From assembly GCA_046482545.1 (NCBI GenBank), contig JAWOEX010000039.1:136898-200897 (forward strand): a DNA stretch of 64,000 nucleotides. Direction: 5' to 3'. Each line of letters begins with the position of its first letter. The stretch's first letter is position 1. The DNA comes from Candidatus Thorarchaeota archaeon (GTDB lineage: Archaea > Asgardarchaeota > Thorarchaeia > Thorarchaeales > Thorarchaeaceae). Of the stretch, positions 2,560 through 62,500 are shown in pieces. A model generated the notes under the pieces. That model did not search any database, was not told where the DNA came from, and worked only from the letters and a program-made list of their open reading frames with translations. The translations under genes and the position numbers were made by a program.

Positions 2560-3138
2560 AATCTGTACACTTAACTATTCTAGATAACCTGTTTCTTACA
2601 GTTTTAGGAACTGTGTGAAACTCCTGTGTTCCACCCTTCCCCTGCCCAGCGTTGCCGCTATACCGGGGCACTACCCCGGCCAAGCAAGGGCTTTGGCCGC
2701 CATCATCAGGACACGGTCCCTCGTGCGGTCTCGGCTTCTGTCTCCTGCCCTGACCCGGACACATCACTCCCGGGGCAGCGAGTGTTTCCACAGCTTTTGC
2801 CACGGCGGAGTTATTATCGCTCGCTCCAGTCTCGTCACCGAAACTGGACAGGTCCAGTTGGACAAAGCGAACAGCCGCAGACTCTCCAGGGCCTGATGAG
2901 GACCCTTGTTTGGAGAGTGAGGTCTTCTGCTTAGAAGACGGGGTCTTCCTCACAGCCTTCGGGCTGGGCGCTTCTCCCGCGGGGGAGTGGCCCACCGCCC
3001 TAGTCCTACTAGACTCGGATTTCTTACTAGGCCTAATAAACTCCCCTCGTCCGGTGTGACAATAGTACTTGCAGGAAATTTTATACAAATCTTACACATT
3101 TGCACTCGGATTTTTACGATTCTTGTAAAACTTGCCTA
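2560..3138 (-). mobile_element. Internally deleted IS200/IS605/IS607-type element: putative tnpB 3' remnant plus omegaRNA-like right end
   Basis: GC-rich intergenic block. Its translation (..KQKTSLSKQGSSSGPGESAAVRFVQLDLSSFGDETGASDNNSAVAKAVETL.., then QETEAETARGTVS* in a shifted frame, TGA at 2706-2708) resembles, from recall, the low-complexity C-terminal tail of Asgard TnpB-family proteins. No RuvC or Zn-finger part is present. The downstream 130 nt recur at 22404-22534. Boundaries are approximate. Confidence 0.5.
2578..2708 (-). ncRNA. Putative structured RNA (omegaRNA/reRNA scaffold-like), copy 1
   Basis: 62/69 nt identical to 22466-22534; minus-strand stems CCCUUGCUUGGC/GCUGGGCAGGGG, CCGGGG/CCCCGG and ACAGUU/AACUGU. 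Confidence 0.55.
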
Positions 3139-3147
3139 CTCTAGATG

Positions 3148-3278
3148 GGCTCTGTGTGAAAAGTCAACAAGGAAGTAAGGAAACGGAGCAATCAAATTAC
3201 AAGATGCCTGATTTCTAACTTCATTTCCCTGTTTTGCGATCAGTCACATTCATCGCTAAAGACTTTTCACACAGCACC
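3148..3278. mobile_element. MITE (131 bp) with 18-bp terminal inverted repeats and 9-bp target-site duplication
   Basis: Left end GGCTCTGTGTGAAAAGTC (3148-3165) and right end GACTTTTCACACAGCACC (3261-3278) are 16/18 inverted; CTCTAGATG flanks both ends (3139-3147, 3279-3287). Confidence 0.85.
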
Positions 3279-3419
3279 CTCTAGATGCTAGGGCTTATAT
3301 TGTCTTGTTCACCATACAAGTTGCTTACAATCTAGATATTCCAGGTCGCACATTTATTGACCAAAGAAATACCTTAGATATAATGAACAGCAGACCAAGT
3401 GTGAGTGGGAGGTTAGATA

Positions 3420-20550: not shown

Positions 20551-20799
20551 AGAATAAGGGGGTAATTTTCCCAATTTCAGTTGCCTCAATACGGATTGTA
20601 TGTGTAATAGAATACCACAGAAAAACTATGAGCTGAGTTGAAACTAACTCCGGCTGTGATTGAATTTTGCATGGCGTGCAGGACAGGAGGTTTTTTGGTC
20701 ATTTGCATGCTTGCCCTGGTAGTCATGCCTCGCGGTACCTCTTCTGCTTCAATGACAACAGAATCAATCAAACAATGACTCTTTTTGGATAAGAGTGTA

Positions 20800-21030
20800 T
20801 TTGATTATCCTCACAATTACCATGGCCTGATAGAGGGTCTACTGGATGATGAAATCCAAGTTGTTGATGACGTAATACAATAGAGTGTCCTACCTGAATT
20901 AAGGGAAGCCGAGAACACCAAAACAGCTGAAATCCTCAGAGATGGCTATGGATATCTCAGCATCAACTGTGCAAAATATCCATTCCACATAACCGCATTC
21001 AGGAAGACTTTCGCATTTGCAATTGACAGT
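20800..21030 (+). pseudogene. Fragment of an ABC oligopeptide-type substrate-binding protein
   Basis: DEIQVVDDVIQ*SVLPELREAENTKTAEILRDGYGYLSINCAKYP, then frameshift to FHITAFRKTFAFAID, matching the SBP family 5 N...PF.....R.A...AID segment. Confidence 0.6.
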
Positions 21031-21098
21031 CATACTCTCTGCAGTGGTCATCCTCCGACTTACATCAGCAAAAGGGATAGAAAAATCTTAGATTGCGC

Positions 21099-22112
21099 TC
21101 ATTTGTCGAAAAAGGTTGATTGTAGAGACGCTAGAAGTTCGTTTTCGCTGGCAAAATCTCTCTCCTCTATGGTATCAAAAACCTCTCTCACCTTTATGCT
21201 CTCATCAGGTTTAATCCAAACCCACCAATCTCCACACTTTGAAAGTATTTCATCTTTGGTGATGGGATATTGTACATCAATTTCTGCCATTACAGCATCA
21301 GCGCCCCAAGAAACTTCTGGGAATTCGTTCTCTCGGAGGTATTGGACAAAACGCCTACAGTCGTTGTGCATCTCATAGTTGTTGAAGAGCACATAGACCA
21401 TCTGATTCGCGTATTCCTCACATTTCTCATAGAGTCTCTTCAGGTCATCATTGGTGAATTTGTATCTATACTTCTGTGACCCTAATCCATGCAGTCTGAA
21501 GTACTTCAGGTCAACATTATCAATCTTTAGCGTTTCACTCTTGAGAGGATCAACCACATTGACAAGCTTGTATTCATCACATAGATCGCTAATGATATCG
21601 TCAGTCCATTCAGCTCCACGGGTCTCCAATGCCAAAGAAAAATCGGCATCGGTGCCTTCCAAAAAATTGCTTAGATTGGATAGATGTTCGTCAGACGGTT
21701 CAAAACTTGAAGGCGTTTGAAGCAAGCAGATGTCGGCAGCCAGTTCTTCACAGATGGCTTTCGTTTCAAGCCATGCATCAAAAACCTCTTCGGTCGGTCT
21801 AAAGGAGCCATAATTGTCCACTTTCCCCTCCTCAACTTCAATGCCTCCTTTGTCATAGGTAGGACTTGAAGGTTCGTGAGTGATTCGTTGATTGGCCTTA
21901 ACAACGAATCTGAAATCAGAATTTACCTCATCGACTAGTTTCCGCCATTTTTGGGCAGTCCTTTTCATTGGCAATTTGTAGAAGGACGAATTCAATTCTA
22001 GAAGAGGATATTCATCCGAATAAGCCTGTATCTTCTGTACGTATTTTTCTTTCCACCCTTCAGGAGGTCGGTAGTATCTATATCCAGAACAACCAGGTAC
22101 AATCTGCGCCAT
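21099..22112 (-). CDS. DUF72 domain protein
   Basis: GCSG, ELNSSFY..P, F.VKA...ITH, LLQTPSSF, YFRLHG, YVLFNN; start MAQIV at 22112. Confidence 0.88.
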   Translation of the reverse strand: MAQIVPGCSGYRYYRPPEGWKEKYVQKIQAYSDEYPLLELNSSFYKLPMKRTAQKWRKLVDEVNSDFRFVVKANQRITHEPSSPTYDKGGIEVEEGKVDNYGSFRPTEEVFDAWLETKAICEELAADICLLQTPSSFEPSDEHLSNLSNFLEGTDADFSLALETRGAEWTDDIISDLCDEYKLVNVVDPLKSETLKIDNVDLKYFRLHGLGSQKYRYKFTNDDLKRLYEKCEEYANQMVYVLFNNYEMHNDCRRFVQYLRENEFPEVSWGADAVMAEIDVQYPITKDEILSKCGDWWVWIKPDESIKVREVFDTIEERDFASENELLASLQSTFFDK

Positions 22113-22403
22113 TACATTCCCTGTTGTATCTTCAACTGCGCACCTAAAATTCCTTTCAAAACGTAAAATAAACAGCAAAATCAAATCAGAGGGAGTTTCC
22201 CTCATCGAGAATACTAACCAAATGTTATTCTTGGAAATAAAACACCCCAATTAGCTGAATATGTCGTTGCGGCTATTCTCGATATCAATAGCGCAAAAGA
22301 CCTGAGTGGAAGAACTAAAGCCCACGAACATGTTTTTGGTGCCATAATCATTAGAATATACAAATCTTGGCAACAAGACATGAATGGAGGAAATATATTC
22401 CAA

Positions 22404-22534
22404 TGAAGACGGACAAAGCCCCTGCTAACTCACGGGCCTACGGGTACCGTGGGAGCGGCGATGCTGGCAGGGGAAGGGTGGAACACAGAAGTTTCATGCA
22501 GTTCCTAGAACTGTAAGAAATGGGTTATCAAGAA
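22404..22534 (+). ncRNA. Putative structured RNA (omegaRNA scaffold-like), stand-alone copy 2 upstream of thrS
   Basis: Homologous to 2578-2708 (minus); stems CCCCUGC 22419-22425/GCAGGGG 22467-22473, CACGG/CCGUG hairpin with cUACGg tetraloop, GCAGUUC/GAACUGU. Confidence 0.55.
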
Positions 22535-22638
22535 GGGGTAGCACAACACAGGAAAAATGAACTTGAAAACGGTTTGTCTCACTCCTAGGGCATCACTCTT
22601 AAGAATGTGAATGCTCATCATAAACACGGGTTCTCATC

Positions 22639-24522
22639 ATGAGGATGCTTCAAATCCATAGCAACAGCTTTTCGTTTGAGCTTAAAAAGAAAGCTCTGAA
22701 AAACGCAGAAGAAGTCGAAGATGAGTCTATATCAATCTCAGATTCGTGTTTGGTCAATTTCATTGCTGGCGAAAAGAGTGACAGCACAGATATTGAACTT
22801 GTTTCAGAGAAAACAGCTGAGATGATAGCTGCAGCCGCCGAAGATGTCAATGAGAATAGAATCGTTGTATATCCCTGGGTGCATCTTACTGAGAATCCAA
22901 GTCCCCCACATGTTGCACTCGCGCTTCTCAGAAATGTGGCATCAAAGCTTCGGGACATGGATTATGAAGTCACTAGAGTTCCATTTGGCTGGTACAAGGA
23001 ATTCTCTATTCACTGTAAAGGCCATCCATTGGCTGAGAGATCCAAAGTCCTAGATATTTCCAAAGCTGAAGCGCAGACGGAAGTTACCGTTTCAGAGGAC
23101 CTTACGGCATTGGAAGCGGAGGAAGAAGCGAAATCAGTATTCTACATAATGGAACCAGATGGCGAATTGACTGAGGTTGAAGATTACGACTTCAGCGGCA
23201 AAGAAGAACTGCGAATGTATGTGGATTATGAGATTGCTAAGGATCGTACCGCCCACGAACCGCCAGCGCATATCGAGATAATGAAAGACCTAGAGCTAGT
23301 GGATTATGAACCGGGTTCCGACGCGGGTAACTTCCGCTGGCCACCCAGAGGGCTCACACTGAAAAAGGCCGTTGAAAAGAGAGTAACTGCTGAAATGGTT
23401 GATTATGGCGCTCACATAGTTGAGACGCCCCTGATTTACGATTACAGTCACCCATCTCTGAAGTCGTATCTTCAACGGTTTCCATCTAGACAATATGTCG
23501 TACGCAGTGGTGACAAGGATTACTTTGCTCGCTTCTCTGCTTGCTTTGGACAGTTCCTACTCGTATCCCAAGCACAAGCCTCATACAAGCAACTACCATT
23601 AAAACTCTTTGAAATCGCGCCCTCTTATCGGAGAGAGCAATCCGGAGAGCTGGCGGGAATGAGGAGACCAAGGGCGTTCACCATGCCCGATATTCATGAG
23701 ATTGTATCTGATGTTGAGATGGCTAAGAACTCTGTCATGAACCAGATGGAGTTTGTCGAGAAATTACACCACGAACTCGAAGTTGACTATGAAGTGTCGT
23801 TCCGTGTTCTCAAATCATTCTTTGACGAACACAGGGATTTCGTCAATGGAGTAGTAGAGAAAGTAGGCAAACCGGTTATGCTCGAAGTCTTCGATGAACG
23901 CTATGCGTATTTCATTTTCAAAGGAGAATGGAACGTAGTTGATTCTCAAGAAAAGGCAGGGTGTCTAGGCACAATTCAAATTGACGTCGAGAACTCTAAA
24001 CGGTTCGACATCACTTATGTAGGTGAAGACGGAGAAGAACACTATCCTCTGATTCTGCATACATCTCCTTCAGGATCAATCGAGCGGGTTCTATATGGTG
24101 TACTTGAGCAGGCGCATAAGCAGATGGAGAAAGGGGTTAAACCACGGTTGCCCCTTTGGATGACCCCAGTTCAGGTCAGGCTTGCCCCGCTTGATGACAC
24201 GTTTGTTGACTATTGTGTCGAGCTTAGCAAGGTTTTCGAAGAAGCTGGAATAAGGTACGAAATTGATGACAGGTCGATGACAGTGGGCAAGAAAGTTCGG
24301 TCAGCAGAGAAAATGTGGGTGCCATACATCTGTGTAGTGGGAGACAGGGAAAAGGAAAGCGGAGAGCTCAGCGTTAGAAGGCGCGAAGAAGGTGACAATA
24401 TTAAGATGAAGCCTGAAGAACTCGTCGAACGTATTCAGGAACAGACATCTTTTGCGCCCAAACAAAGGCTCCTGCTACCGAATCTGATATCAAAGCAAGC
24501 CATATTTTCAAGAGAAGTCTAA
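22639..24522 (+). CDS. thrS: Threonine--tRNA ligase (archaeal type with N-terminal editing domain)
   Basis: YP.VHL and PFGWYK.F...CKGHPLAE.S editing domain; SYRREQSGEL, R.FTMPDIH, QIDVEN..RF, HTSPSGSIER. Confidence 0.96.
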   Translation: MRMLQIHSNSFSFELKKKALKNAEEVEDESISISDSCLVNFIAGEKSDSTDIELVSEKTAEMIAAAAEDVNENRIVVYPWVHLTENPSPPHVALALLRNVASKLRDMDYEVTRVPFGWYKEFSIHCKGHPLAERSKVLDISKAEAQTEVTVSEDLTALEAEEEAKSVFYIMEPDGELTEVEDYDFSGKEELRMYVDYEIAKDRTAHEPPAHIEIMKDLELVDYEPGSDAGNFRWPPRGLTLKKAVEKRVTAEMVDYGAHIVETPLIYDYSHPSLKSYLQRFPSRQYVVRSGDKDYFARFSACFGQFLLVSQAQASYKQLPLKLFEIAPSYRREQSGELAGMRRPRAFTMPDIHEIVSDVEMAKNSVMNQMEFVEKLHHELEVDYEVSFRVLKSFFDEHRDFVNGVVEKVGKPVMLEVFDERYAYFIFKGEWNVVDSQEKAGCLGTIQIDVENSKRFDITYVGEDGEEHYPLILHTSPSGSIERVLYGVLEQAHKQMEKGVKPRLPLWMTPVQVRLAPLDDTFVDYCVELSKVFEEAGIRYEIDDRSMTVGKKVRSAEKMWVPYICVVGDREKESGELSVRRREEGDNIKMKPEELVERIQEQTSFAPKQRLLLPNLISKQAIFSREV

Positions 24523-34165: not shown

Positions 34166-35536
34166 ATGAAATTTATGGTATTATCGAAGTATAAGATTAT
34201 AGTCGGTTGTATTCTACTGACAGTTCTTCTTGCAGTACCGTTGGCAAACAATCCACATGCTCCCGGTGAGAATCCTTCCCGGGCTGCATCTGCTGATGTT
34301 ACCACTCTCTGGTCCTTTGAAACCGGCGATGATGTCGATTCTTCACCGGCTCTCGGTGATTTAGATGGTGATGGTGATCTGGATGTGGTTGTGGGAAGTA
34401 ATGACCGCAACATCTACGCGCTGGATGGCACTTCCGGTACCGAGCTCTGGTCCTATAGGACTGGTGCCCCTGTGTTTTCCTCACCTGCACTTGGTGATTT
34501 AGATGGTGATGGCGACCTCGATGTGGCTGTAGGAGCCCTCGAGGCCAAGATTTACGCACTCGATGGCAGCTCCGGCAACGAGCTCTGGTCCTTTACGACT
34601 GGCGACGAAGTCGTCTCCTCACCGGCTCTCGGTGACCTAGATGGTGATGGCGGCCTCGATGTAGCTGTAGGAAGCTACGATGGCAAGATTTATGCACTCG
34701 ATGGCACTTCCGGTACCGAGCTTTGGTCCTTTACGACTGGTGACACTGTCTTCTCCTCACCGGCTCTCGGTGACCTAGATGGTGATGGCGGCCTCGATGT
34801 GGTAGTGGGAAGTTTCGACAATAACACCTACGCACTCGATGGCACTTCCGGTACCGAGCTTTGGTCCTTTGAGACTGGCGACGAAATCTTCTCCTCGCCG
34901 GCTCTCGGTGATTTAGATGGTGACGGTAGTCTCGATGTAGCCATAGGAAGCTACGATGGCAAGATTTATGCACTCGATGGCAGCTCCGGCAGCGAGCTTT
35001 GGTCCTTCCAAACGGGCCTTGCTGTCACATCCTCACCAGCAATTGGTGATTTAGATGGTGATGGTAATTTGGATGTGGTTGTGGGAGATGTATATGGTAC
35101 GGTCGATGCTCTAGACGGTAGCTCCGGCACACAGCTCTGGTCCTTTCAGACGGGGGATAATATCATCTGTTCTACGCTGGCAATCGCTGATATGGACGGT
35201 GATGATGGCATGGATGTGGTGGTAGGAAGCAGAGATCACAATGTCTACGCGCTGGATGGTTCTTCCGGTACCGAGCTCTGGTCCTTTACGACTGGCGGAG
35301 ACTTGGTTTCCTCACCAGCAATCGCTGATTTGGATGGCGATGGTACCTTAGATGTCGTCGTTGGTAGTGGGGATGATAAGGTCTATGCGTTAACCATGAC
35401 TCCTTCAACGACCACTACTGAGTCGACTACAGAAACCACGGAGGCAGAGGGAATTGATCCGGTGCTACTCGTTGCGGGAGTTGGTGCTGCGGTTGGAGTA
35501 ATAATAGTCATTGCCATTGTCTATTTCAAGAAGTAA
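34166..35536 (+). CDS. Membrane-anchored FG-GAP/PQQ-like beta-propeller surface protein
   Basis: Signal peptide; 8 repeats of 46 aa (LWSF.TG..V.SSPALGDLDGDG.LDV.VGS.D...YALDG.SG.E); Thr-rich stalk; C-terminal TM ending in KK. Confidence 0.88.
   Translation: MKFMVLSKYKIIVGCILLTVLLAVPLANNPHAPGENPSRAASADVTTLWSFETGDDVDSSPALGDLDGDGDLDVVVGSNDRNIYALDGTSGTELWSYRTGAPVFSSPALGDLDGDGDLDVAVGALEAKIYALDGSSGNELWSFTTGDEVVSSPALGDLDGDGGLDVAVGSYDGKIYALDGTSGTELWSFTTGDTVFSSPALGDLDGDGGLDVVVGSFDNNTYALDGTSGTELWSFETGDEIFSSPALGDLDGDGSLDVAIGSYDGKIYALDGSSGSELWSFQTGLAVTSSPAIGDLDGDGNLDVVVGDVYGTVDALDGSSGTQLWSFQTGDNIICSTLAIADMDGDDGMDVVVGSRDHNVYALDGSSGTELWSFTTGGDLVSSPAIADLDGDGTLDVVVGSGDDKVYALTMTPSTTTTESTTETTEAEGIDPVLLVAGVGAAVGVIIVIAIVYFKK
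34307..35392 (+). repeat. Intragenic tandem repeat, 8 units of about 138 bp
   Basis: Near-identical units such as GAGCTCTGGTCCTTT and CCGGCTCTCGGTGAYYTAGATGGTGATGG recur every 138 bp. Confidence 0.92.
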
Positions 35537-48797: not shown

Positions 48798-51700
48798 TCA
48801 GAAACTGATACCTAGACTCTCCAAGAGGGCCTCCAGATCACTCTTTGAAAGGTTCTTTGCCTGTTCGACTATTACCTCAATTTCATCACGAGTCATGCCT
48901 TTCCCCCTTAGTTGTTCTCGTAACGCTTCAAGCTCACCTGGCTGAGAAGCAAGTGTCTTCTCGACAGCCTCCTCCACCTCGGGTGCTTCTACTGGGACTC
49001 CCTCTTCAGTCTTCCTGGCCGTTTCTTGTCGGATGACCTCTCGGATGAAGCCTGGGCGTTCACTCGCTCTCATTCTCGACAAGTCTAATCGGAAAGCTTC
49101 AAGCTCCTTTTCACCAAGTCCAGTCAGGTCAGCAAGCTCCTCTAGAAGTTCATTTACCTCAGGAACAACCGCAACAACTGTCTCTCCTTCCACTTCGCCA
49201 CTCGTCTTGGAAACGTTCACAGGCTGAAGTAGTTCGTTTGCCACACCACGAAGAATCTCCGCCCTTGATGGCACTTCCGCTGGCTCAGGCACATTGCCCT
49301 TCTTGAGGTCTCCAATCATACCGTTAATGATTCGGATGATTCTAGGAACGCTCCAGACTCTGACATAGAGAATTATTAGAAGGGCGAATATGGCAAGCCC
49401 AACACCTCCTGCAATCTGAACGTTTCGAACTAAGACTTGTTCTGCTGTAACATCCGAATCTATGGTAATCTGAATTGTCTTGCTTTCATATTGTTCCTTA
49501 GAGAATCCAATCTGTATGTTGAAGGTTTGTGTTGCATTAACTCTAAAAGTGAGCTCATAGGTCCCGTTATTATACGGTTCATTGGTCAAATCAGGGTAAT
49601 ATTGTATATCCTGTTCTCCGTAGGTGATATACTCTTCCGCACCACTAATACCAACATTGTGATCCAAATCAATGTAAGACACCACGATAGTTATTCTTGC
49701 GCCAGGTTGCGTTGAGATTCTTGATGTTCTTGCAATCAATCGGGTCTGTACCCGGCGAATGGTTATTTGAACATTGATGGACTCAACAGAGTAAATGGTC
49801 GTTGGAAAGGCGATTTCCACAGAATAGGTATCGATAGGTAAATCTCCAGGAACTGTAATCAGGTAGCTTCCGTTGCCAAGTGACTCAAGCGATTCCTCTC
49901 CAATATTCTCCCAGTACGCTAGGCCATTGACATCGCCAACGGTTTGATTGTTTAGAGAGTTGGTGAGCGTGTATAGTATAGTCCTAGAATCGTTTACAGG
50001 AATGGACACGCTCTGCGGCCCTGAGATTGTAGCGGGCATTGCTTTCAACTGCACACTCACAATCATCGATGCAGATTGGTGGTTGTCAAGTGAAAATGTA
50101 ACAGGAATATCATAAAGACGTGGATTTACTGGGGTGAGATATATCTCTAGGAGATACGACCCGTTTCCAAGTTCAGTGACATTGGCGTCTTCCCATCCAA
50201 TATTTGCGCTTGCACCTGAAAGCCCTATATTGTTGTAAGTGTCATTGTAAGTGAGTTCATAGGTAACCTTCTCACCGTGATATCCGTCTGCAGTTACAAC
50301 TGGAGCATTCAGTTGAGTGGGTACAAGCCGGATATTAGTGAGGATTGTTCTCCTCTGCAGCTGATACCCAGTCTTGGCAGCGGTTATTCGAAGCTGGAAA
50401 CTCTGAGCTGTAAGTACGGTCGTATCAACAGAAACAACATAGCTACCATTCGATGCCGGTTCAAGCTGACCGCTGAGTCCACCTAGGTTATAGGATACGT
50501 TAGCTGAATCAATAGTTCCGCCGTAATAGGTATCATTGAATAATACTTGAATATCCAAATTATCTCCGTAAGTGACTAACAACGATGTCTTGTTCTCCAC
50601 AAGCTGTAATTTCGAAGGAATTGGAATAATCTGTACATTGATTGTGGAAACCAGAAATGCGTAATTGTTAGCATTTGCACTGATTATCAAATCGTACTGG
50701 CCTAGTGCAAATCCAGAAGAATTCAGTTCACCAAAGTAGTATCCAGGGGTGCCGTTATTCAGCAGAGTGGACTCAGTTTCATTGAACTCCATGAATACTT
50801 CGACATCACTCACGGGCCCTCCGTTGGTTGTATCTTCAACATACACCCAGAAGTCCTCTGTGGATTCCAGAACAACATCCTTCGATGAGGATTCGGGTAT
50901 TACCGTACCAGTAGCTTTAGCTACGATTAGATTCATCGAAGTTGTCTTTGTCCGGTAATACTCTCCAGTTGCACTGACTTGTGGTTCGTAAGTACCGTAA
51001 CCGAAATCTGAGGTTGTTAGATTGAGAATATATGTTCCATTGTTCAGATCATCGAGGTAGTAAAGTGAGTTGTTCCAAAGGAGAGATGTGTTCAAACCCT
51101 TGACGAGATTGTTGTAGTATGTTTCGCGTACTTCAACTCTGATTCTGACAATCTCGCCCCAATCAGCATAGTATGAGCTTTTTTCGAGTACAATGTCAAG
51201 TGTAGCTGAGCCGGGCTGTATGTCAAGTGTCTGATTCACAGATTCATAGTAGGTCTTGTTTGCCACCACTGCAAAGGTATATTCGCCCGCAACTAGGCCT
51301 GTTGTGTTCATGGTGAGTTCGTATTCTCCGTCACCTATTTCACTGATAGATACTGATGTTCCATACAAGGATTCCCAGTTTGTTGTGACGTTTGCATTTA
51401 CAATGGGAAGGTCATGGTCATAATCAGTATAAGTCAAGCTCACAGTGATAGGCTCACCAACCGGAATGGTACCTGCAGCGGGTACTTCAGATTCCATTGT
51501 TGTTTGGATCAGCCGAATGGAAGCTGGCAGGTTGCTCGCAGTTCTATTCGCATAGAACGGCTCTCCGCTCCAGATCAGCGTTAGATTGAAGAAAACTACG
51601 CCTATACTTCCAAATTGATCTGTAGGAACCTTGATGAGGTAATTCCCATCACCCTGGTCTGTCGTATAGTATGCTAGACTTGTGGCATTGTTGCTCAGTA

Positions 51701-54700
51701 GTTCGATGCCTGCATTTTCGATTCCTTTCCCCTCAGTATAGTCCTCATAGGCAAAATCGATTGTGATGTTATCACCATATGGGGTTTCTTCCACAAGGGT
51801 AAACAAGATTGCCGTGGGTCTACGGACAGATGATGCAGAGGTAGTTACTGATCTGGCCGCATGATACGGTGGAAGAGAGGACCTATCTATCAATAGTTTC
51901 AATTCTTTTGTTACAAGCGCTGTAGCGTTAAGCACAGTTGAGTTCATACTAATCTCATAATACGTGCCATGCTCATAGAGTGTATACTCGAAATCCGAAA
52001 CCACTACTGACCCATCTAATTGAAGCGTTATGTTGCCTTGGAGAACAGGAATGAGAGCACCTGTGGTGAAATCTTCATATCGGAATGTAAGGGTTAGATT
52101 CTCTCCGAAAGCAGTCTCTCCTGGAGTCTTTGTCAATACAATCCGAGTAGGCCTTGTCGAAACGTCAGCACTGATTTGTTTTGTTCTGGGTGCGTAGAAG
52201 GGTTCTCCAGTTCTGGATACTGACACAGAAAGAGTATATCGTTCGGGTCCTCCCAGCGCACTGCTGTTAACCAGAATGAGGTAAAGACCATCTCCCTGTT
52301 CTTCAACCCAGTAATTATCGCCAGCTGATAGGGCTTCTTCAGCGGGGGCACAAGAGACATCCACTGTTGCCCCTTCAATACCGCGACCCGTACTATCATC
52401 GGTGTATTCAAAGAATAGCGAAACGTTCTCTAGGTAGGCCGTGGGATCGGGACTTTCGAATCCGATTTGGGTAACACGTTTCAGAACCGTGATGGTAAAG
52501 ATCTCGAAAGCATCGCTCGCGAAGTTTGATCCCGTATACTGAACAGAAGCATTGACATTGAATTCGCCGTCCTGTGAGAAAGCCGAAGTATTGAGGACAA
52601 CGAGGAAATGACCATCACCCAGATACTCAACAGAATACCCGCCACTAAGGGAATCGTTTAGCGATAAATCTCCCACCATGTTCTCAGAACTTCCCGCAAC
52701 AAGATCGGTGTAGACGAAGTCAATACTGACATTATTCGCATATTGCGGCGGGGAGAAAGAGAGATGTGAAAGTTGGGTAGTACGTAGAGTAACGGTTACA
52801 GAGAACAGGTATTCTTGAATATCTTGATAGTACGGTTCACCAGTCCAAGTTAGATTCAGATGCAGATTATTTGTATCGATGCTCAGTCCAGTCGAATTAA
52901 TGTAGACGGTGAAAATCTTCTGACTTGAATCATAGCCTAGAGTGTATGATATTCCAGCCTCATTAATCTGAATCTCAAGATTCGAACTGTTAGCGATTTT
53001 AGCGGCAGTCAATGAATCAAAGAAGCTGAATGATAGATTAGCAAGTTCATTATACGGTGTTGCTTGAACCGGCGTGTGATCAATGTAGGTTGGCCGTTCT
53101 ATTATCAGCACTGTGACCGTCAATGTGCCATTCTCATATAGAGGATCAGCTCCACTTCTCCACATCATTTCGATTGCAAATCGGAAGGTTCCTGTTTCAA
53201 GACAGTACTCACTGTCCAGACGGAATTCGTACGTCCCCGGATTCCCAGCTTGCTCGAATATGTAGAAATCGCTCTGGGTGACAAACGATCCTGAATCTAA
53301 GGAGCTGACGTCTATTAAGACGTTATCAGTACTATTAGAGATTAGCGTATCATTAATGGCATCTCTGTAACGTACAGTGAAAGTGACGTTGTCAAGGTAG
53401 TTTGTCGCAGTAGGAGCAACATCTAAGAAAACATCAGTCTCAGTTCCTAGAACCCTGACCGATGTTTCAAGGGTCTGTTGGTAGTACTTGAGTACAGCAC
53501 CGTCCCATTTGATAGTAAAGGACAGATTCTTCCAACCTATGGTCCCCCATTGGTTAGCAGGGATGGAAACGTTGTAGTGACCATCTCCAAGACCAGAGGG
53601 CTCTGAATAGAATACGAGGGCAGACATGCCCGGAGAGGAGATGCTCAAGTTAACGTTTCCAGTTTCATTTGTAACTCCCTCAGACAAGTCAGTGTCTTGA
53701 TAGAATAACAGAACGGTTATGTTCTGACCAAATGGCGTCTGTTCTACCGGTTCGTCTAGCGTAAACAGTGTGTTGTGGCTGCGTATCTCCACACCAATAT
53801 CGAATGAATGATTCTGGTACCCACTTCTATTGACGTAAAATCGGACAGTATAGAATTCATCCTCTTCCGTGAGCGGATCATCAGATTCGGTATACACCGT
53901 TATGTTGTACTCGCCATCAGCGGTCTCGATTACTGTATAATTCTGTTCATCACTGGAGTGGAAAGAGGTCCAGTTGCATGTAATCGAGCTGTTTGCATCT
54001 ATAACAGGCTGATCATTATCTATATCAGTCCACGTTAACGTGAAGGACGCAGCTTCACCAGCAGGGATTGAAAGTTGATTTGCCGTGTACTGGATAGTAT
54101 TGTATATTTCACGGACCTCTACATAAATGACAAGATATGATGGATTTACGTATGGTGCGCTTGCATTTACGAGAATTGGATACTCTGCAATCTCAGCAGA
54201 TGCGAGATTGAGTTCGATCGCGTATTCTCCGCCACCATTGTCCGTGACCTCGTATCCTGCTGTCCAGTTGCATTGTAGATTTGCATCCTCTATACCGGAC
54301 CCATTGACATTTGAAAAATCCATATCCAAAGTCTGATTTCCGCCAATCGGACCTGAAGTCTTTGGGTAATCTGGTGAATCTAATACAGAATCATAGTTCA
54401 CAACGAGGTTGAAGCCAGCTGCTGCTTCGTCGTAATTATCTCGAGACCAAGATAGGCTCAGAAGGTATTCACCTTTACCAGGCACAGCTGATGTATCAAT
54501 CACGTTCGTATACTCGCCATTGCCGTTATCATCGAATTCGTCTGTACCGTCAACCCAACTCATGGTCAAGGTACCCCCAGGAACAAGGACATCGCTATCG
54601 GTATCGTTTGCTTCTATCACCAAGAGAAGAAGATCGCCGTATGTGGCGTTTACTTCCCAAGTCTGTCTAGCTTCAGAGGGGTACTTGACATTCAGTTCGG

Positions 54701-56540
54701 ATGAGTGAGTTATGCTGAAGGCACGCCTGAAGAAACCTGTTTCATGCCAAGTGCCGTTGCTCCCCATGTCGTTCGTCATTGCCTGAACCATCCAATCTCC
54801 TGCCAAGGCATTCGTGCCTGCAAGATTGAAGACTGAAGTGGTCGCATAGCCTGAAGAGTCAACAGTTGCATTTGCGGAAAGCCAAGAATTGCCTTCTGGG
54901 TTGTATATGGTGATATTGACAATAGAGTTCTCGTATGCCGGACCTATATAGGCTCTGACCCGGCTATCCTCACCTGCTCGGAAGTTCGCTGATTGACTCC
55001 AAGTCCCGCCATCAGAATCATACAGCTCCACGTCCTGTATCATGTTAGATGACCTACTCTTTATCCTCCAATAGCCGTATCTTCCGGCCTCTGTCGTGAC
55101 CTCAAAGGTTGATACATTCAGGTATTTGTCACCGATATTCCCACCTGACCAGCCAGCAGTCAGATTTGTATTGGGTGCCAACGGTCTAGCAACAAAGTAC
55201 ACATCTCGATCATAAGGGAGAGTCTGATTGAAGAAATACAAATTCGGATAACCATCCGGTATGTCTGCATGATGGTACGTTGTGTAGTACCCATCTGTCC
55301 CATTCTGAATTGAGAATCTCTCTCCATAGGATTCTGGGCTGATTTCGTAAACTGTCTCAGCTGAAGTATCCCTAGCAAACATGTTTGTCTCTACTGAGAA
55401 GTCAACAGTTATCGTCTTGTTGGGGTCGGGATTAGTTGGTGTTGGAGACCAGCTGAAATTGAATTCTACCGGATTATCCGTCCAAGGTGTAGATGGAACT
55501 ATTGTAACGCTTCCCGACCCATATTCTGTGGAATTTGAAACTTCATGTCCGTCCATCTCCAGATTGACCTGAGAAGGCATTGCCTTCGTTTGCATGTATA
55601 ATACAACATTATCAATCATCGCAGATGGTCCAATTTCAGGATCGTAGCCAACATCCTGCTTGCTCAATAAGCCGACTTCTATATCCACATTAGAATCGGA
55701 TAACAAATCGAAGATGCTTTCGGGAATTGGGATTAGACCTGAATCGTACCAAGTCTCTTCGGCATCGATGTCATCGAATACAAGCTCCCATACTTCTTGG
55801 CCCTCAACTTCCACATATATCGAAAATGAACCAGTCATACCATAGTGAGTATCATCCAGAGTATCGGCCCAATAATCGAGTCGAATCCCAGCCCAGATGA
55901 GATCACCTCTGGGAACCGATACCGTCTGAGTGACATAAGCAGCATCATCAGCATCGTAATAATAGGGAGCACTTGTGTCATCAGACTTGATTTCAAAGTA
56001 GAAAGAATCGTCGCCTGGTCCATGGCCGCTTTCATTCCACCGAGTTATTGGATCGCTGTAACTACCAACATTATTAGTAGAATTTGTCCAGTCACCCCGT
56101 CCACCTTGAAAGCCAGGGTCAGTAACCCACGTTCTATTCTCGGTCAAATCAAACACAGTGGATTCAAGACAATAACCCTCCCAGTCTTCGCTTGTGGGTA
56201 TGCTAACGGATGTATTAGTGGTTGTATTGGTTGGTAGATATTGCATTGAATTCCCTGTGAATGTATCAGACCTATTGCCATATTCACCTGTGCTCAATGA
56301 CGATGAAATGCCAGTCCATTCTGTCATTCCCTGTTCTGAGGTGATAAATCTCATAGCATCATCCAGTTGAGCATCTTGGACTTGAGTGGTATCATCTGAC
56401 ACCTCTTTTCCAACATCCTCGCCCGAAACACTCGCCTCAGAATCAATTGAAGTGCTATACATTGTGGAGAGATATGGGCCCGCAATGATGAGCAGCACTA
56501 GAAGCGATACTGCAAGCGGTGCTAATTTCCGAATGTTCAC
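48798..56540 (-). CDS. Giant (2580 aa) type-I membrane surface protein with Ig-like repeats and cytoplasmic tail
   Basis: N-terminal signal/anchor; many ~100-120 aa beta-rich repeats (Y.D......I.GA...W...G.G.Y...L.T); many N-x-S/T sequons; TM near the C-terminus; ~180-aa charged helical tail. Confidence 0.85.
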   Translation of the reverse strand: MNIRKLAPLAVSLLVLLIIAGPYLSTMYSTSIDSEASVSGEDVGKEVSDDTTQVQDAQLDDAMRFITSEQGMTEWTGISSSLSTGEYGNRSDTFTGNSMQYLPTNTTTNTSVSIPTSEDWEGYCLESTVFDLTENRTWVTDPGFQGGRGDWTNSTNNVGSYSDPITRWNESGHGPGDDSFYFEIKSDDTSAPYYYDADDAAYVTQTVSVPRGDLIWAGIRLDYWADTLDDTHYGMTGSFSIYVEVEGQEVWELVFDDIDAEETWYDSGLIPIPESIFDLLSDSNVDIEVGLLSKQDVGYDPEIGPSAMIDNVVLYMQTKAMPSQVNLEMDGHEVSNSTEYGSGSVTIVPSTPWTDNPVEFNFSWSPTPTNPDPNKTITVDFSVETNMFARDTSAETVYEISPESYGERFSIQNGTDGYYTTYHHADIPDGYPNLYFFNQTLPYDRDVYFVARPLAPNTNLTAGWSGGNIGDKYLNVSTFEVTTEAGRYGYWRIKSRSSNMIQDVELYDSDGGTWSQSANFRAGEDSRVRAYIGPAYENSIVNITIYNPEGNSWLSANATVDSSGYATTSVFNLAGTNALAGDWMVQAMTNDMGSNGTWHETGFFRRAFSITHSSELNVKYPSEARQTWEVNATYGDLLLLVIEANDTDSDVLVPGGTLTMSWVDGTDEFDDNGNGEYTNVIDTSAVPGKGEYLLSLSWSRDNYDEAAAGFNLVVNYDSVLDSPDYPKTSGPIGGNQTLDMDFSNVNGSGIEDANLQCNWTAGYEVTDNGGGEYAIELNLASAEIAEYPILVNASAPYVNPSYLVIYVEVREIYNTIQYTANQLSIPAGEAASFTLTWTDIDNDQPVIDANSSITCNWTSFHSSDEQNYTVIETADGEYNITVYTESDDPLTEEDEFYTVRFYVNRSGYQNHSFDIGVEIRSHNTLFTLDEPVEQTPFGQNITVLLFYQDTDLSEGVTNETGNVNLSISSPGMSALVFYSEPSGLGDGHYNVSIPANQWGTIGWKNLSFTIKWDGAVLKYYQQTLETSVRVLGTETDVFLDVAPTATNYLDNVTFTVRYRDAINDTLISNSTDNVLIDVSSLDSGSFVTQSDFYIFEQAGNPGTYEFRLDSEYCLETGTFRFAIEMMWRSGADPLYENGTLTVTVLIIERPTYIDHTPVQATPYNELANLSFSFFDSLTAAKIANSSNLEIQINEAGISYTLGYDSSQKIFTVYINSTGLSIDTNNLHLNLTWTGEPYYQDIQEYLFSVTVTLRTTQLSHLSFSPPQYANNVSIDFVYTDLVAGSSENMVGDLSLNDSLSGGYSVEYLGDGHFLVVLNTSAFSQDGEFNVNASVQYTGSNFASDAFEIFTITVLKRVTQIGFESPDPTAYLENVSLFFEYTDDSTGRGIEGATVDVSCAPAEEALSAGDNYWVEEQGDGLYLILVNSSALGGPERYTLSVSVSRTGEPFYAPRTKQISADVSTRPTRIVLTKTPGETAFGENLTLTFRYEDFTTGALIPVLQGNITLQLDGSVVVSDFEYTLYEHGTYYEISMNSTVLNATALVTKELKLLIDRSSLPPYHAARSVTTSASSVRRPTAILFTLVEETPYGDNITIDFAYEDYTEGKGIENAGIELLSNNATSLAYYTTDQGDGNYLIKVPTDQFGSIGVVFFNLTLIWSGEPFYANRTASNLPASIRLIQTTMESEVPAAGTIPVGEPITVSLTYTDYDHDLPIVNANVTTNWESLYGTSVSISEIGDGEYELTMNTTGLVAGEYTFAVVANKTYYESVNQTLDIQPGSATLDIVLEKSSYYADWGEIVRIRVEVRETYYNNLVKGLNTSLLWNNSLYYLDDLNNGTYILNLTTSDFGYGTYEPQVSATGEYYRTKTTSMNLIVAKATGTVIPESSSKDVVLESTEDFWVYVEDTTNGGPVSDVEVFMEFNETESTLLNNGTPGYYFGELNSSGFALGQYDLIISANANNYAFLVSTINVQIIPIPSKLQLVENKTSLLVTYGDNLDIQVLFNDTYYGGTIDSANVSYNLGGLSGQLEPASNGSYVVSVDTTVLTAQSFQLRITAAKTGYQLQRRTILTNIRLVPTQLNAPVVTADGYHGEKVTYELTYNDTYNNIGLSGASANIGWEDANVTELGNGSYLLEIYLTPVNPRLYDIPVTFSLDNHQSASMIVSVQLKAMPATISGPQSVSIPVNDSRTILYTLTNSLNNQTVGDVNGLAYWENIGEESLESLGNGSYLITVPGDLPIDTYSVEIAFPTTIYSVESINVQITIRRVQTRLIARTSRISTQPGARITIVVSYIDLDHNVGISGAEEYITYGEQDIQYYPDLTNEPYNNGTYELTFRVNATQTFNIQIGFSKEQYESKTIQITIDSDVTAEQVLVRNVQIAGGVGLAIFALLIILYVRVWSVPRIIRIINGMIGDLKKGNVPEPAEVPSRAEILRGVANELLQPVNVSKTSGEVEGETVVAVVPEVNELLEELADLTGLGEKELEAFRLDLSRMRASERPGFIREVIRQETARKTEEGVPVEAPEVEEAVEKTLASQPGELEALREQLRGKGMTRDEIEVIVEQAKNLSKSDLEALLESLGISF

Positions 56541-59500
56541 TGCTCGTCACCTCCCAACTGGTCAAGTAGTGCATCTATTTCAGCTCGTGAAAGATTCCTC
56601 GCTTGTTCAACGATAAGGTCTACTTCACTGCTTTCCATTCCGCGTGCTTCCAAGCGGCGGCGCAAATCATCGAGTTCTGCCTCTGATAATCCTCTCTCAA
56701 TCTCTGGTTCCTCAGCCTTTCTGGCCTTCTTCTTGATTTCTCGTGCCCTTCGTGCCTTCTCTTGCCTAATAACCTCTGAAACGAATCCCGGACGTTCACT
56801 CGGTCGCATTGCCTCCAAATCATCCCTCAAGAGGGCAACATCATCCTCAGTAAGACCCACAATCTTAGCAAGCTCGTCAAGCAATTCCTCAATATCAAGC
56901 ACGGAAACATCCACAGTCGATGGAGCTACATCATTTGTCGTCTTTCGAATATGTACTGATTCGAGGTCTTCATTCATCATTTCCATCAGAACCTCCCTTC
57001 TGGACCTCACAGGTTTAGCCTCAGGAACTTCACCCTTCTCCAATCTCCCTACCATGGACCTGAGCCAGCGAAGCATTTTCGGAACTGATAGCACCTTCAC
57101 ATATAACGCTCCCAGAATAACAAGTGCGATCAACCCAACCATTCCGTAGCTAAATCCTGTAACAAGCGCTTCTTGTTCTGGTGTTAACAGAGAGTAAATC
57201 GTAATGCTGACCTCTCCATCTTCATAATCTGAAGCGCTAAGCGTGACGTTGATTTGATACTTCCTCACATTGTTCGCAACAAAACCGAAGGCGTACGTTC
57301 CGTTTCCGTAATCAATATCGATATCTGGTGAGCGAGTGAGCTGGAGACTCGGAGTGTCATTTGCTGCATTCGCAATAGGTACTCCATGGTCAATATCCAA
57401 AAATGTCACGACTAACAGAAACGGCTCCCCGACATAGACCTGATTCAAATCATTCTCTATGATTACTTCAGTTTTGATTGGCCGAATCGTCAAGTCAACA
57501 AGCAGCACAGCTTGGCTATAGTTGCCACGGGAAAACACTATTCGAATTCTATATGGTTCAGAGCGAATCTGAAGCCTTGAATCATTGGTTTCTGCAGGAC
57601 CAAAACGGTACGAGCCGTTGTTGAGATTCGTTAGCTGTACGGTACCGAATTCCCATATTGCGGTCGCTGTAGCATCCATCACCGATTTGTTATGAAGCGT
57701 ATCTCGGAATCCGAAGAACTGGCTGTAATCATCCCCCACAGGGAAATCTACCTCTTCCGAGCCAAGAATCTGAGTAGGAATAGGCTTGACAAGAATCCTA
57801 ACGTTCCCGTAGGCATAGGAATATCTCTCCTTGCTAAATGTGATAGAAATGGTATGAGGTAAGCTTCCTGCACTTACTGTTGTCGTATTAACTATCAGTG
57901 AGTATTCTCCATCACCCTCATCAATCAGGGTTCCAGATGAAGATGCGAAGGAATAGCTTGTCGATGCATTGACTATGCCCACATTGTTATGCGAGTCAGA
58001 AAACGTCAGGTTATAAGTCACATTCTGACCGTAGAAAGCCTCTTGAAAGGCATCACCTACTACAGCTATTCGTGTAGGTATCTTTTCAACTTCAACGGTG
58101 AATCGAATCACACTTGACTCGTATCCGTCTTTGAAAGACGAAACACTCAAAGTCCATTCACGGATTTGGAGAATCTCTGTTGAGACATTACCGGAATAAT
58201 AACCGTCGCCGATATCCGGAAGATTTCCAGTTACGGATCCAATACTGAATGTGAGATTTGCTCCGGAAACAGCAATACCCAAATCAGTATTGTTCAAATA
58301 TACGGTAACGTTAACTTGATCTCCAGAAATCACCGACAGGACAGTCTCATTGCCAAAAGGTGCAAGTTCAGTAGAAATCTGTTTTACTTCTATCAACAAC
58401 TGAGTATTTACACTCTTGTAGTTACTTGAAGTCGCCCTTAGCAAGAATTGATGACTGCCGATGGGAACACCCGACACCGTGAACACGCCTGTATAACTAG
58501 CCTGCTCTGTATCCCAACTCAGACTTCCTGTACCACCAATCCAGTCGTATGTGACAGATCCATCAGTTATTGGGGTCGTTTCCCCTTGAAGTGTATAGTT
58601 AGCTCGTACAGTCACATTCTCGCCATTTACAACTGTCGATTGACCTGGTTCCAGTACCACCGCTGCAGAAAGGGTTGATGCCAGCTTTGCTATCTTTATC
58701 TGAGCGTCCTTCTCTCGTGTCTCATAGTTGAATTTTTCAAAAGCTACAGTAATCGTATATTGGCCTGCAGTGTAATCAGTAGAATTGAAAGTGCAGTTGT
58801 ATATTCCATTAGCGACTTCATCTGCCAAGAATATATCGCCAGAGAAAGTCACATTGACTGTAGCATCAGACACAGGATCATAGTTCTGGAGGTCAGTCAC
58901 ATTCACAGTAACATTAAACACATCACCCCATTCAGGAGTCTCAGGGGAAATCTCTATCTGAATCTCAACGGGAAAAGCTGAAAGTAGAATTTCAGCTTGA
59001 ATCGACTGATTTACGTGAAAAATTTTGGATGCATTGATTTCGAAGTCGTACCAGCCTGCATCCAGACCTGTAGTGTTTATGCTAAGATTATAGATTCCAT
59101 TTCCAATCTCAGATATTTCATATGATGTCCCATAGGAATCACCCCAGCCTGTTTGGACCGAAGCATCTTCGATTCCCGTCGAGGTCACAATATCGACAAA
59201 TGAGATGTTTCCTACAATCTGATCCCCGGGGTAGTATGTGGGGCTTGCGGGTAACTCAAATTTGAGTGAAGTTGAAACCGGGTTAACGGTTATACTAAAG
59301 GAGAGTCCAGTCCGATTCTGGTAATAGGGAATACCAGTCCAAGTGGCATTTGCCTTGAAGTAGTAGGTCCCTAGGCCACTAAGGCCGGTGGTATTGACTC
59401 TGATTTCGTAGCTTCCGTCAGCCAAATCATAGACCCAGTATTCAAAACTGGTGACATTCTGAGAAGATACAGAAATATCCGCACCACCTATTCCTTCACC

Positions 59501-62500
59501 AGACAAGTAGTCACTATAACGGATGGTTGCACTAGCATTGAAAAACATGTAAGCAGGTGGAGTTGAAAGCACTCCCATCTGTGTGAACCTTGCTGTTATG
59601 GACACTTCTGTTGAAGTTGTTGCATTAGCATAGAAAGGTGTCACATCGCCCCAGTGGAAGCGCAATTCAATTGGATAATCATCTGTAAGCGATTGACTAA
59701 GCTTGCTGGAATTGATTGAGATAATGTAGACCCCATCATCACCAGATATGTCATACTCTGAATCCTCTAGCAATGTGTCAACACCATGATGAATGATGAG
59801 AACATCTTTAGATGCATTCACGCCTTCACCGCTTATCGAATCTGTTACTGTTATTTCGAAGGATACGTTCTCCAAGTAAGCAGTGCTAAGAGGGGATTCT
59901 GAAACTGTGAATGATATAGGTCTTCTAGAGACCTCAAGACTAACACTCGTGCTCCGTCCTAGATAGTATGGGGAACCAGTCCAGTTGACTATCACCGAAA
60001 TGGAATAAGTCCCGAAATCTCCAAGAGCTTGGTCGGTTGAAATTGAAATCGTGTAGTTACCGTCACCATGATCCTCTATCCAATAGTTTGTTCCAAGCTC
60101 AAGTTCGTTCTGGGCTGTGTCACAGGTCGCATATACATCCGCACTAGGAACTCCAGCCCCATCATTATCATCTGTGTATGCTACTGTGATGTTGGCAAGG
60201 GTCTGATAGGGTGCCAATGATGGTAATTCGCTGGTTAGCTGTGTCATTCGCCTCGTTATTTTCAGGTAGAAATAATCTGTGGCGTTTTCACAGAATCTCG
60301 TGCCACGATAGGTGATATTCGCATTCACTTGATAAGTACCCAGTGCCGCAAATGCGGTGGTATTCAATCGTAATGTGTAGTTTCCGGTGCCTTGGTCGAT
60401 TATCTCATAATACCCAATGAGAGATGAATTAAGAGCTAATATACTTCCTTCCATTCCGCTTGTGCTATAATCATCTAAATCACGGAAAGTGAACACCAAA
60501 GTGAGATTATTGCCATACTGAATAGGACCATAGGATCCATGAACCAGCTCAGTATAGCGGTATCTTACTGTTATGGGAATCTCGGAGGATGTTCTGTTCT
60601 GATAGAACGGTTCACCAATCCAAGTGAAATTCAGATGAAAGTTGTGACTACCAGGCTCCCAACTCGAAGTGTTTAGTTCAATAATGAATTCACCCGAAGC
60701 ATCACCAGCATAGAATACAGAATACAGAATGCTTTCCCTGATGGACACACTCAGAGCTGAAGAATTGAGTATTGGTTCGCCGCTCAACACGTCTGTGTAA
60801 ACAACGGTGAGGTTGACCAATTCATCGTATGGCGTGACCGGCAGCGGTTGCCAATCAACAGTGCTTTGTCTGTATGTTGCATGGACTGAGACTGTCAAGG
60901 ACTGATTTTCATAGAGCGGTAGTTGCCCACTTGTCCAGTTCAACCATATCATCAAGTCATAAGAGCCCAGACCGCTGAGATGGCTCGTATTGAATTCAAT
61001 CAAATATTCACCAGGACTACCTACTGGGTCTGACTCATTGATGAACATGTCATTCTGGCTAAGAGTTTCGCCAGAAGTAAGAACTTCCACATTTAGGTAG
61101 ACATTGTCAGGATACAGTCCAGTAGAATTCGATATCCCTGTATCGTTTGCAAGGTCGTAATAGACCACAGTGAAACTGATGTTTTCTCCGTACGGAGTCA
61201 TCACGGGACTTTGTCCGAGATAAATATTGGTGGGTGTTCCGACGATTGTCACATCAGTTTCTATGGTACGGTTGTAATACTTCCGGGTGGGTCCAGTCCA
61301 GTTGACAAGAATCGTGAGGTCCTTTTCACCTGTCGAACCCCATTGATCCGCCGCAATGAGGATAGTATACTCTCCAGCCTGACTACCGTTAGACACGGAG
61401 AAATCAACAGACAGTAAGGTAGAACTCTTCACTTCTAGGAGGACATTGTATCCTGTGGCACTTCCATTCGTAATTCCAGTGTCCGCATCAATATCGTAGT
61501 ACACAACATATGCTTCTATATCGCCAGTGTAGGGAGTTGGTTCTATAGGATTATCCAAGTAAAACGAGGTCAGGTGAGTCCTTAGTTCAACTGCTAGTGT
61601 AAATGTATGATTCTGAGTTGCATATCTTCGAATATCGAAAACTACATCGTAGGTATCAAGAACATCCGAATCTTCAGAAAATAATGTAACTTCATACTCC
61701 CCAGGGGAGATTTCGACTACTGTGTAATTCTCCTCACCTGAAGAATGAATATCAGACCAGTTACAACTAATTGCATCCGCTGCACCTGTGATTGGCTGGT
61801 CGTGGTCTGTATCTCGATAGGTTATGGTGAACGAACTTTGATAACCTACAGGTAGAGAAACCTTGCTTGTTGAAGGAATAGCTGAAGTCAACAGTTCCCT
61901 AACTTGGACTGAAAGGACTATTGTGCGACTTTCGCAGTAATCCTGCGAGGCGTTGATTTCTAGTCGATATGTATCCAGAGGTGTGTTGTCTGTTTCTAAT
62001 GTGAGTCTGTAGTATCCCGGACTGTCTACCACCTCTTCAACAGAGTATCCATCGTGTGACCAGTTAGCTATTATCGATGCATCCGTTATAGGATTAGATT
62101 CCTCATCCTCAAAATAGAGCTCAATCTCGCCATCATATCCACCCGGAATATCGATCCCCGGTGCATCTGGGGAGAGCAGTTCAGTATCGAAAATCACATT
62201 GATTGTGAAGGTAGTCGTAATGGGGTCGTAATAATCATCGGTCCACTCTAGGCTAACCGGATATGCATCTCTATCCGTCACCTTGCTAGTATTCAATGTA
62301 ACACTATACTCACCAGTGCCCATATCATTCAATACCCCGGGGCCAACAGCCCAAGAGTAGGTCATTTCGCCGCCAGGCAGGAGTTCGCCATTGTCCGCAT
62401 CCTTAATCCTGAATTGCAGTAATACGGGGTCTCCGTACGATACATTCTTGGACCACGAGCTTTGAGATCCGAGTGGATACTTCACACTAATATCGGTTGA

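Follow-up and report, generated by a model that had tools for sequence, protein, structure and literature searches.

A decayed insertion upstream of thrS in a Thorarchaeota archaeon is probably the right end of a gene-less aCas1-TnpB transposon derivative

The window, by which we mean the whole 64,000-nt stretch of Candidatus Thorarchaeota DNA analysed here, contains a DUF72 gene (21099..22250, minus strand) and an archaeal threonyl-tRNA synthetase gene (thrS; 22639..24522, plus strand), with a repeat copy lying between them. A sequence-only reading had matched 22466-22534 to the reverse complement of 2578-2646 at 62 of 69 nt, had named hairpins in both copies and had seen no tnpB beside the thrS copy; re-computation gave the same identity, the hairpins are present, with both copies folding better than shuffled sequences (z = -3.0 and -3.2), and the neighbours are indeed only DUF72 and thrS. 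Its limits for the copy were partly right, the 5′ extension of the similarity being real but the copy starting at 22386 rather than 22404, and the letters shared at the 3′ end being real but TCwAGA there representing a duplicated target hexamer and not scaffold. A UNCG loop which it had regarded as kept structure is not conserved across the family.

A profile made from full copies was searched against the 3.05-Mb genome (98.9% complete), giving 106 family matches, of which 36 were near full length (~560 bp) and 74 had the right end, where the earlier reading had seen one of two copies. Together they make up 34.5 kb, or 1.1% of this genome, disrupt genes and in many cases lie at contig ends. 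Related sequence occurs in 23/36 genomes of the host's family and in 0/24 other genomes searched, and homologous proteins come from sources whose names indicate Thorarchaeota. In the profile comparison the copy upstream of thrS corresponds to model positions 425-574 of 583 (window 22386-22533), i.e. a piece of ~145 nt consisting of 22386-22527 and the target hexamer TCAAGA, equivalent to the right end of the ~560-bp element type. Across 22411-22533 there is a single site different from a full copy elsewhere in this genome (contig C24, C24:2549-3125). On the profile and this C24 copy we annotate 22386..22527 (plus strand) as a right-end remnant of an aCas1-TnpB element, comprising the 3′ part of an omegaRNA-like scaffold and a terminal repeat, so that the stand-alone RNA of the earlier reading becomes a 5′-truncated mobile-element remnant. 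The first 24 nt (22386-22409) differ from the closest copy at 8/24 sites, against one site in the remaining ~124 nt, and this fast-diverged segment, which has retained a hairpin and gained an AT-rich run, could mark either a recombination junction or the gain of a promoter.

Reading along the plus strand, the remnant opens with a small GGAA/TTCC hairpin (22389..22401; helix 1, 96% paired, 4/5 pairs with two-sided changes) directly past the position of the tnpB stop in full elements. An enclosing stem follows (22419..22473, formed by 22419-22426 and 22466-22473; helix 2, 95% paired, 7/8 pairs compensatory), inside which lie two hairpins, one inner and variable (22429-22453), the other with a GCGA loop (22455-22464), helix 4 of the covariation set being 100% paired. 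The terminal hairpin (22492..22520) has a loop of 3-5 nt in the subfamily of the thrS copy instead of the conserved GTTCACTC loop, and overlaps the right terminal inverted repeat TGTAAG-N10 (22512..22527), which mirrors the N10-YTTACA of the left end; the target hexamer TCAAGA, duplicated upon insertion, is at 22528..22533. A hidden left end upstream of the thrS copy was searched for and not found. By eye, 21068-21090 at the DUF72 stop resembles one left-end subtype, and if it were a real left end DUF72 would be cargo, but the left-end profile gives it no score. Known RNA families (RNase P, SRP, HEARO, ROOL, introns) were considered and dropped, Rfam giving no match at gathering score and E-value hits at chance level only.

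The second copy in the window is a complete non-autonomous element (2585..3139, minus strand) with both ends and, between them, a tnpB tail of ~100 codons that overlaps the scaffold, the nuclease domain being absent, and is flanked by a TCTAGA duplication at 2579..2584 (right side) and 3140..3145 (left side). Beside it, 3148-3278 is a second, unrelated MITE of ~131 bp whose inverted repeats measure 19 nt and which has a duplication of 8-9 bp (3139-3147, 3279-3287). The ends of this MITE are similar to those of the DDE elements of this genome, and the TnpB-family copy is located within its duplication.

Full copies share the layout TCnnGA - 10 or 11 nt - YTTACA ... TGTAAG - 10 nt - TCnnGA. The hexamer varies among copies, and the two ends of a copy carry an identical one in 20/37, compared with 3.6 by permutation (kinship ignored), whilst removing the element together with one hexamer restores a frame of at least 60 codons on each side in 5/37 cases versus 0-1 at neighbouring offsets. 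Two elements of 8.2-8.3 kb (on contigs C20 and C28) also have matching hexamers at both ends, and excision of the 8,232-bp C20 element with one hexamer restores an ORF of ~315 codons, which by sequence appears acetyltransferase-like. Congeners lack both the minus-strand window copy and the C28 element at the corresponding places. The gene-less copies have the features of MITEs, namely small size, high copy number, the ends of an autonomous element and empty sites. Comparison of copies and sites establishes family size, ends, past mobility and a 6-bp TCnnGA target duplication, the outer letters of which may belong to the target or to the element. Copy pairs joined left end to left end, one having inserted beside the other, were seen at C20:181311-182450 and C41:25041-25604.

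In the subfamily of the thrS copy, TCAAGA ends 6/6 members in this genome versus 6/31 other copies (p = 4e-4), and one member in the congener G001 also ends at TCAAGA. Over the whole tree heritability of the hexamer is weak and region-dependent (p = 0.004-0.17), being clear only for this subfamily, and the bias could reflect either a carried core or a lineage-specific choice of target. RNA-guided choice of insertion site was also considered and set aside, as variable bases of the left end compared with right flanks gave no match beyond the hexamer (p > 0.15).

Upstream of thrS the element is absent from the 4-5 relatives compared (G001, G002, G003, G018 and G005), and DUF72 has no close ortholog in five relatives (≤32% identity). 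In G001 the position of DUF72 is the site of ~13 kb of ABC substrate-binding genes, in place of which the window has 2 kb made up of a 5′ gene remnant, DUF72 and the right end; the gene remnant, from an ABC substrate-binding gene (about 20744..21030, plus strand), bounds the rearranged segment on the left. In G001 and G002 a single TATCAAGA is located 121 and 125 nt, respectively, before the thrS ATG, compared with 111 nt in the window, and in both congeners an ABC substrate-binding gene contains it within its 3′ end. Sequence past the hexamer aligns poorly with congeners, and the duplication belonging to the thrS copy is not visible because its left junction has been lost. The simplest history, and one that we consider probable, is that the ABC gene preceding thrS received a copy in its 3′ end, at TCAAGA, and that a later deletion or replacement took the left ~420 nt of this copy along with the ABC gene array. 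We are confident that the thrS copy represents an insertion in decay, of which the right end survives, and that it derives from a MITE-like deletion form of a Thorarchaeota aCas1-TnpB transposon; it is probably inert, ordinary debris and a mere marker of family activity, with thrS a bystander. The earlier suggestion that it had been co-opted in the DUF72/thrS promoter region, acting as a cis-regulator or promoter of either gene, could draw on its location between divergent genes and on a TATA-like AT-rich run (22391-22399) within the faster-diverged first 24 nt, but no copy exists at the thrS loci of the five relatives, the native 57 nt before thrS are kept without the element, and the remainder of the copy is 99% identical to a dispersed one and hence young and unadapted; we regard co-option as very improbable.

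The claim of a dispersed Asgard scaffold family of the TnpB omegaRNA type fared well, since the repeat forms the 3′ end of 6/6 tnpB genes in this genome and its fold covaries. In a set of 44 sequences, pairing in the named structure amounts to 88% and covariation was 0.41, compared with 0.22 after shuffling and 0.13-0.18 with slid partners (kinship not modelled). This conserved, covarying scaffold overlaps the tnpB 3′ end and is followed by variable sequence, on which grounds its description as TnpB omegaRNA-like holds. The variable stretch pairs mostly with sequence past the GTTCACTC loop and so forms the terminal hairpin (23/44 below z = -1.65), and the apparent scaffold end lies ~30 nt beyond this hairpin arm, at GGTYR(G/T). 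A further pairing, GGGTGGA/TTCACTC (helix 5), is 89% paired with just one pair changing on both sides and is unproven. Full elements have a GTTCACTCA motif downstream of tnpB which the subfamily of the thrS copy has lost, and the GTTCACTC loop is lost from 45/74 right ends. Putative guides taken after TTCAC or at the element end gave only chance-level matches to their own locus, apart from duplicated tRNA sequence. In contigs of RNA runs 22410-22533 had a depth of 50-230 against 4-8 for thrS, although these words are common to 74 right ends and DNA is a possible source.

Model positions 142-440 correspond to the 3′ tail of a TnpB of 545-620 aa (PF07282), which scored above cut-off in six loci. 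In this TnpB the usual RuvC-II position lacks a Glu, an invariant E403 being present instead. In four loci an ORF of 1,410-1,963 aa is directed away from tnpB toward the left end, and intermediate deletion derivatives retain 3′ fragments of it beside left ends; it was found in 26/36 genomes of the family, with tnpB adjoining in 13/19 loci of relatives. Sequence searches with the giant protein did not find Cas1, Foldseek E-values were >0.02, and Atlas, PDB-sequence and NCBIfam searches gave no usable match. The predicted model of its first 255 residues has the fold of the Cas1 catalytic domain (Z 13.2, rmsd 3.8 over 181 residues), the top 12 VIA matches for the N-terminus all being Cas1 or casposase (Z 13.2-9.3) and the next scoring 7.0, and E79, H174, D181 and D184 of this domain are invariant. 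After the Cas1 core comes a Cas4-like nuclease, a weaker call (Z 7.9) supported by a PD-(D/E)xK-type motif, and then a third, RecA/KaiC-like domain (Z about 10) with no clear Walker A lysine. The modelled structure describes a putative aCas1 fusion of Cas1 core, Cas4-like nuclease and RecA-like domain. aCas1 is reportedly a subject of Makarova and co-workers' 2020 work. The complete 8.2-kb element reads left end, giant aCas1 fusion, divergently oriented tnpB, omegaRNA, right end.

We consider it probable that aCas1 binds the TTACA/TGTAA end motifs and would move the gene-less copies in trans. The elements could instead be real but be moved by another enzyme, either a host DDE or Y1 transposase or a recombinase crossing over at the hexamer, with aCas1 as cargo. 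The tracking of lineage by the hexamer fits a carried core of this kind, the tRNA-Gly sites of the sister clade resemble integrase sites in having a displaced 3′ half, and the genome does have DDE and Y1 transposases. These lie elsewhere, however, with none inside aCas1-TnpB elements and a sole Y1 match, the inverted repeats of the DDE elements differ from the ends of this family, and tyrosine recombinase, serine recombinase and IS110 gave no match in the 98.9% complete genome; aCas1 is the sole integrase-type gene within the ends and has kept its catalytic residues. Another mobiliser, which might act in trans, is an unlikely alternative to aCas1.

In the sister aCas1-TnpB clade, elements lie at tRNA-Gly(TCC) (L003:10229-10303 and L072-L075). 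L072, L074 and L075 have at their far end the 3′ half of the tRNA, displaced and reaching to the anticodon loop, and L072 also shows a tandem remnant. For a further locus, L081, the site is a tRNA-Tyr-like gene, and a 16-bp repeat is present.

The family resembles casposons (PMC9939771) in its Cas1-family integrase, inverted repeats and target duplication and in that the sister clade inserts at tRNA genes, in one case in tandem. Unlike casposons, the 8.2-kb elements lack PolB (absent from the ORF lists and Pfam matches of the complete C20 and C28 elements), carry TnpB and have Cas1 fused to nuclease and RecA-like domains; the duplication is 6 bp instead of ~15 bp in A. boonei, and there are ~100 gene-less copies. 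By its gene content the element is not a casposon, though it may work like a polymerase-free one carrying TnpB. With IS200/IS605 elements such as ISDra2 and their non-autonomous derivatives it shares a structured omegaRNA that extends over both the 3′ end of tnpB and the right end, and the inferred TAM TT(C/A)AT resembles TTGAT (PMC13639567), but it lacks a Y1 TnpA, has inverted repeats and a duplication, encodes a TnpB of different RuvC-II arrangement and has the TAM at 0/37 insertion sites, so that cleavage of empty sites does not fit. The absence of TnpA, the duplication and the TAM-less sites argue that it is not an IS605 element.

Altae-Tran et al. (2023; PMC10691335) described Asgard aCas1-TnpB loci (Cas1H-Asgard-1/-2) as a probable transposon family with a GTTCACTCA motif after tnpB, and the system found here is to that extent not undescribed, as the sequence-only reading had supposed. 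The likeness covers the Asgard host, a strongly diverged Cas1 adjoining tnpB, flanking repeats and a conserved T, variable stretch and GTTCACTCA downstream of tnpB. On all features compared, by sequence and by structural model, the present family fits this predicted class. The main text of that paper is silent on end sequences, a duplication, a MITE family and a leader unit, all of which are found here, and it offers the variable stretch as guide, which here is mostly one arm of the terminal hairpin. No published description of these ends, the duplication or the leader unit was found.

That leader unit lies outside the window, ~50 nt before the tnpB start of full elements, begins with GAGTGAAC and ends with GGTYRG like the right end of the element. 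The 11-14 nt past it exactly repeat the TATA region of tnpB ~96 nt upstream in 14/15 elements (the 15th, by eye, at 12/13), and the promoter match is preceded by TTCAT or TTAAT in 14/14 parsed cases. Leader spacer and promoter agree at 182/195 positions compared with 128±6 when permuted, changing element by element (kinship ignored). The unit also pairs with the arm and loop of its own scaffold better than with those of others, with compensatory changes (p = 2e-4, kinship ignored), and its last hexamer covaries with a scaffold strand ~190 nt upstream (p = 1e-4, kinship ignored). On the strength of these correlations we think it fairly likely that in full elements the scaffold would act as a tracr-like partner of the crRNA-like leader unit, which would park TnpB on its own TATA box through the TAM TT(C/A)AT and the 11-14 nt match; this match to its own promoter suggests RNA-guided autorepression of tnpB. 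A duplicated operator of a protein repressor is an alternative, but it is a poor explanation of covariation base by base. Similar in kind are tracr-L, crlRNA and CreR autorepression (10.1101/2023.03.03.530964), with a short repeat-like unit and a match of ~11 nt to the effector's promoter, and the split guides of TranC (Jin et al., 2025, via PMC13565253), in which an omegaRNA functions as tracrRNA; those are CRISPR-Cas loci with arrays, whilst here a single unit lies in a transposon with no array. A search of the literature on TnpB in Thorarchaeota or TnpB autoregulation gave no relevant paper, nor a description of a single leader unit for TnpB.

The sequence-only reading had proposed that the thrS copy is itself a working orphan guide which loads TnpB in trans, in a multi-guide system. 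By analogy with the leader unit such a guide would begin in the flank at 22529. The scaffold portion, which is nearly intact, does fold, the genome has six tnpB genes and family sequence occurs in metatranscriptome contigs. Against this, the copy has neither the GTTCACTC loop nor the upstream strand, ~190 nt away, with which the scaffold 3′ hexamer covaries, pairing between its arm and leader units comes to -8 to -13 kcal/mol, no better than shuffled sequence (-9 to -11 kcal/mol), guides from 69 right-end flanks gave TAM-adjacent matches with a mean of 7.12 nt versus 7.12 nt for controls, and the TAM is at none of the insertion sites. We regard a functional orphan guide as very improbable, and the decayed insertion remains the reading we prefer.

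The composite reading, a polymerase-free active Cas1 transposon in which a 6-bp word carried by lineage partly picks the target and a split-guide TnpB represses its own promoter, we rate at a little short of an even chance. Were it true, a Cas1 integrase, a Cas12 ancestor and a repeat-spacer unit would be united in one transposon with no CRISPR array. If aCas1 does move these ends it would be a programmable-size integrase, unlike PolB casposons, and if the leader guide works it would represent RNA-guided TnpB autoregulation, a plausible way-station to type V CRISPR. aCas1-TnpB elements have so far been proposed from gene neighbourhoods alone, and the copies described here make the class directly testable by supplying a natural mini-donor of ~560 bp with exact ends, a 6-bp TCnnGA target, the predicted TAM TT(C/A)AT and a predicted guide start.

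Several further features were observed. At L004:6510-8329 (contig C34) an AbiEii toxin gene and a probable antitoxin lie directly before a tnpB lacking both the promoter target and an aCas1 partner, and at C44:61-400 there is a CRISPR-like array whose repeats begin with GTTTCAATCC at a spacing of ~75 nt. In the window, two convergent paralogous membrane-type ORFs (978-1691 and 1738-2493) share 72% nucleotide identity over 72 nt with no Pfam match, 34166-35536 encodes an FG-GAP/PQQ-type beta-propeller protein with 138-nt (46-aa) repeats, and two adjacent paralogous giant ORFs on the minus strand (48798-56540 and 56537-63748) encode proteins of 2580 and 2403 aa that have hardly any Pfam match.
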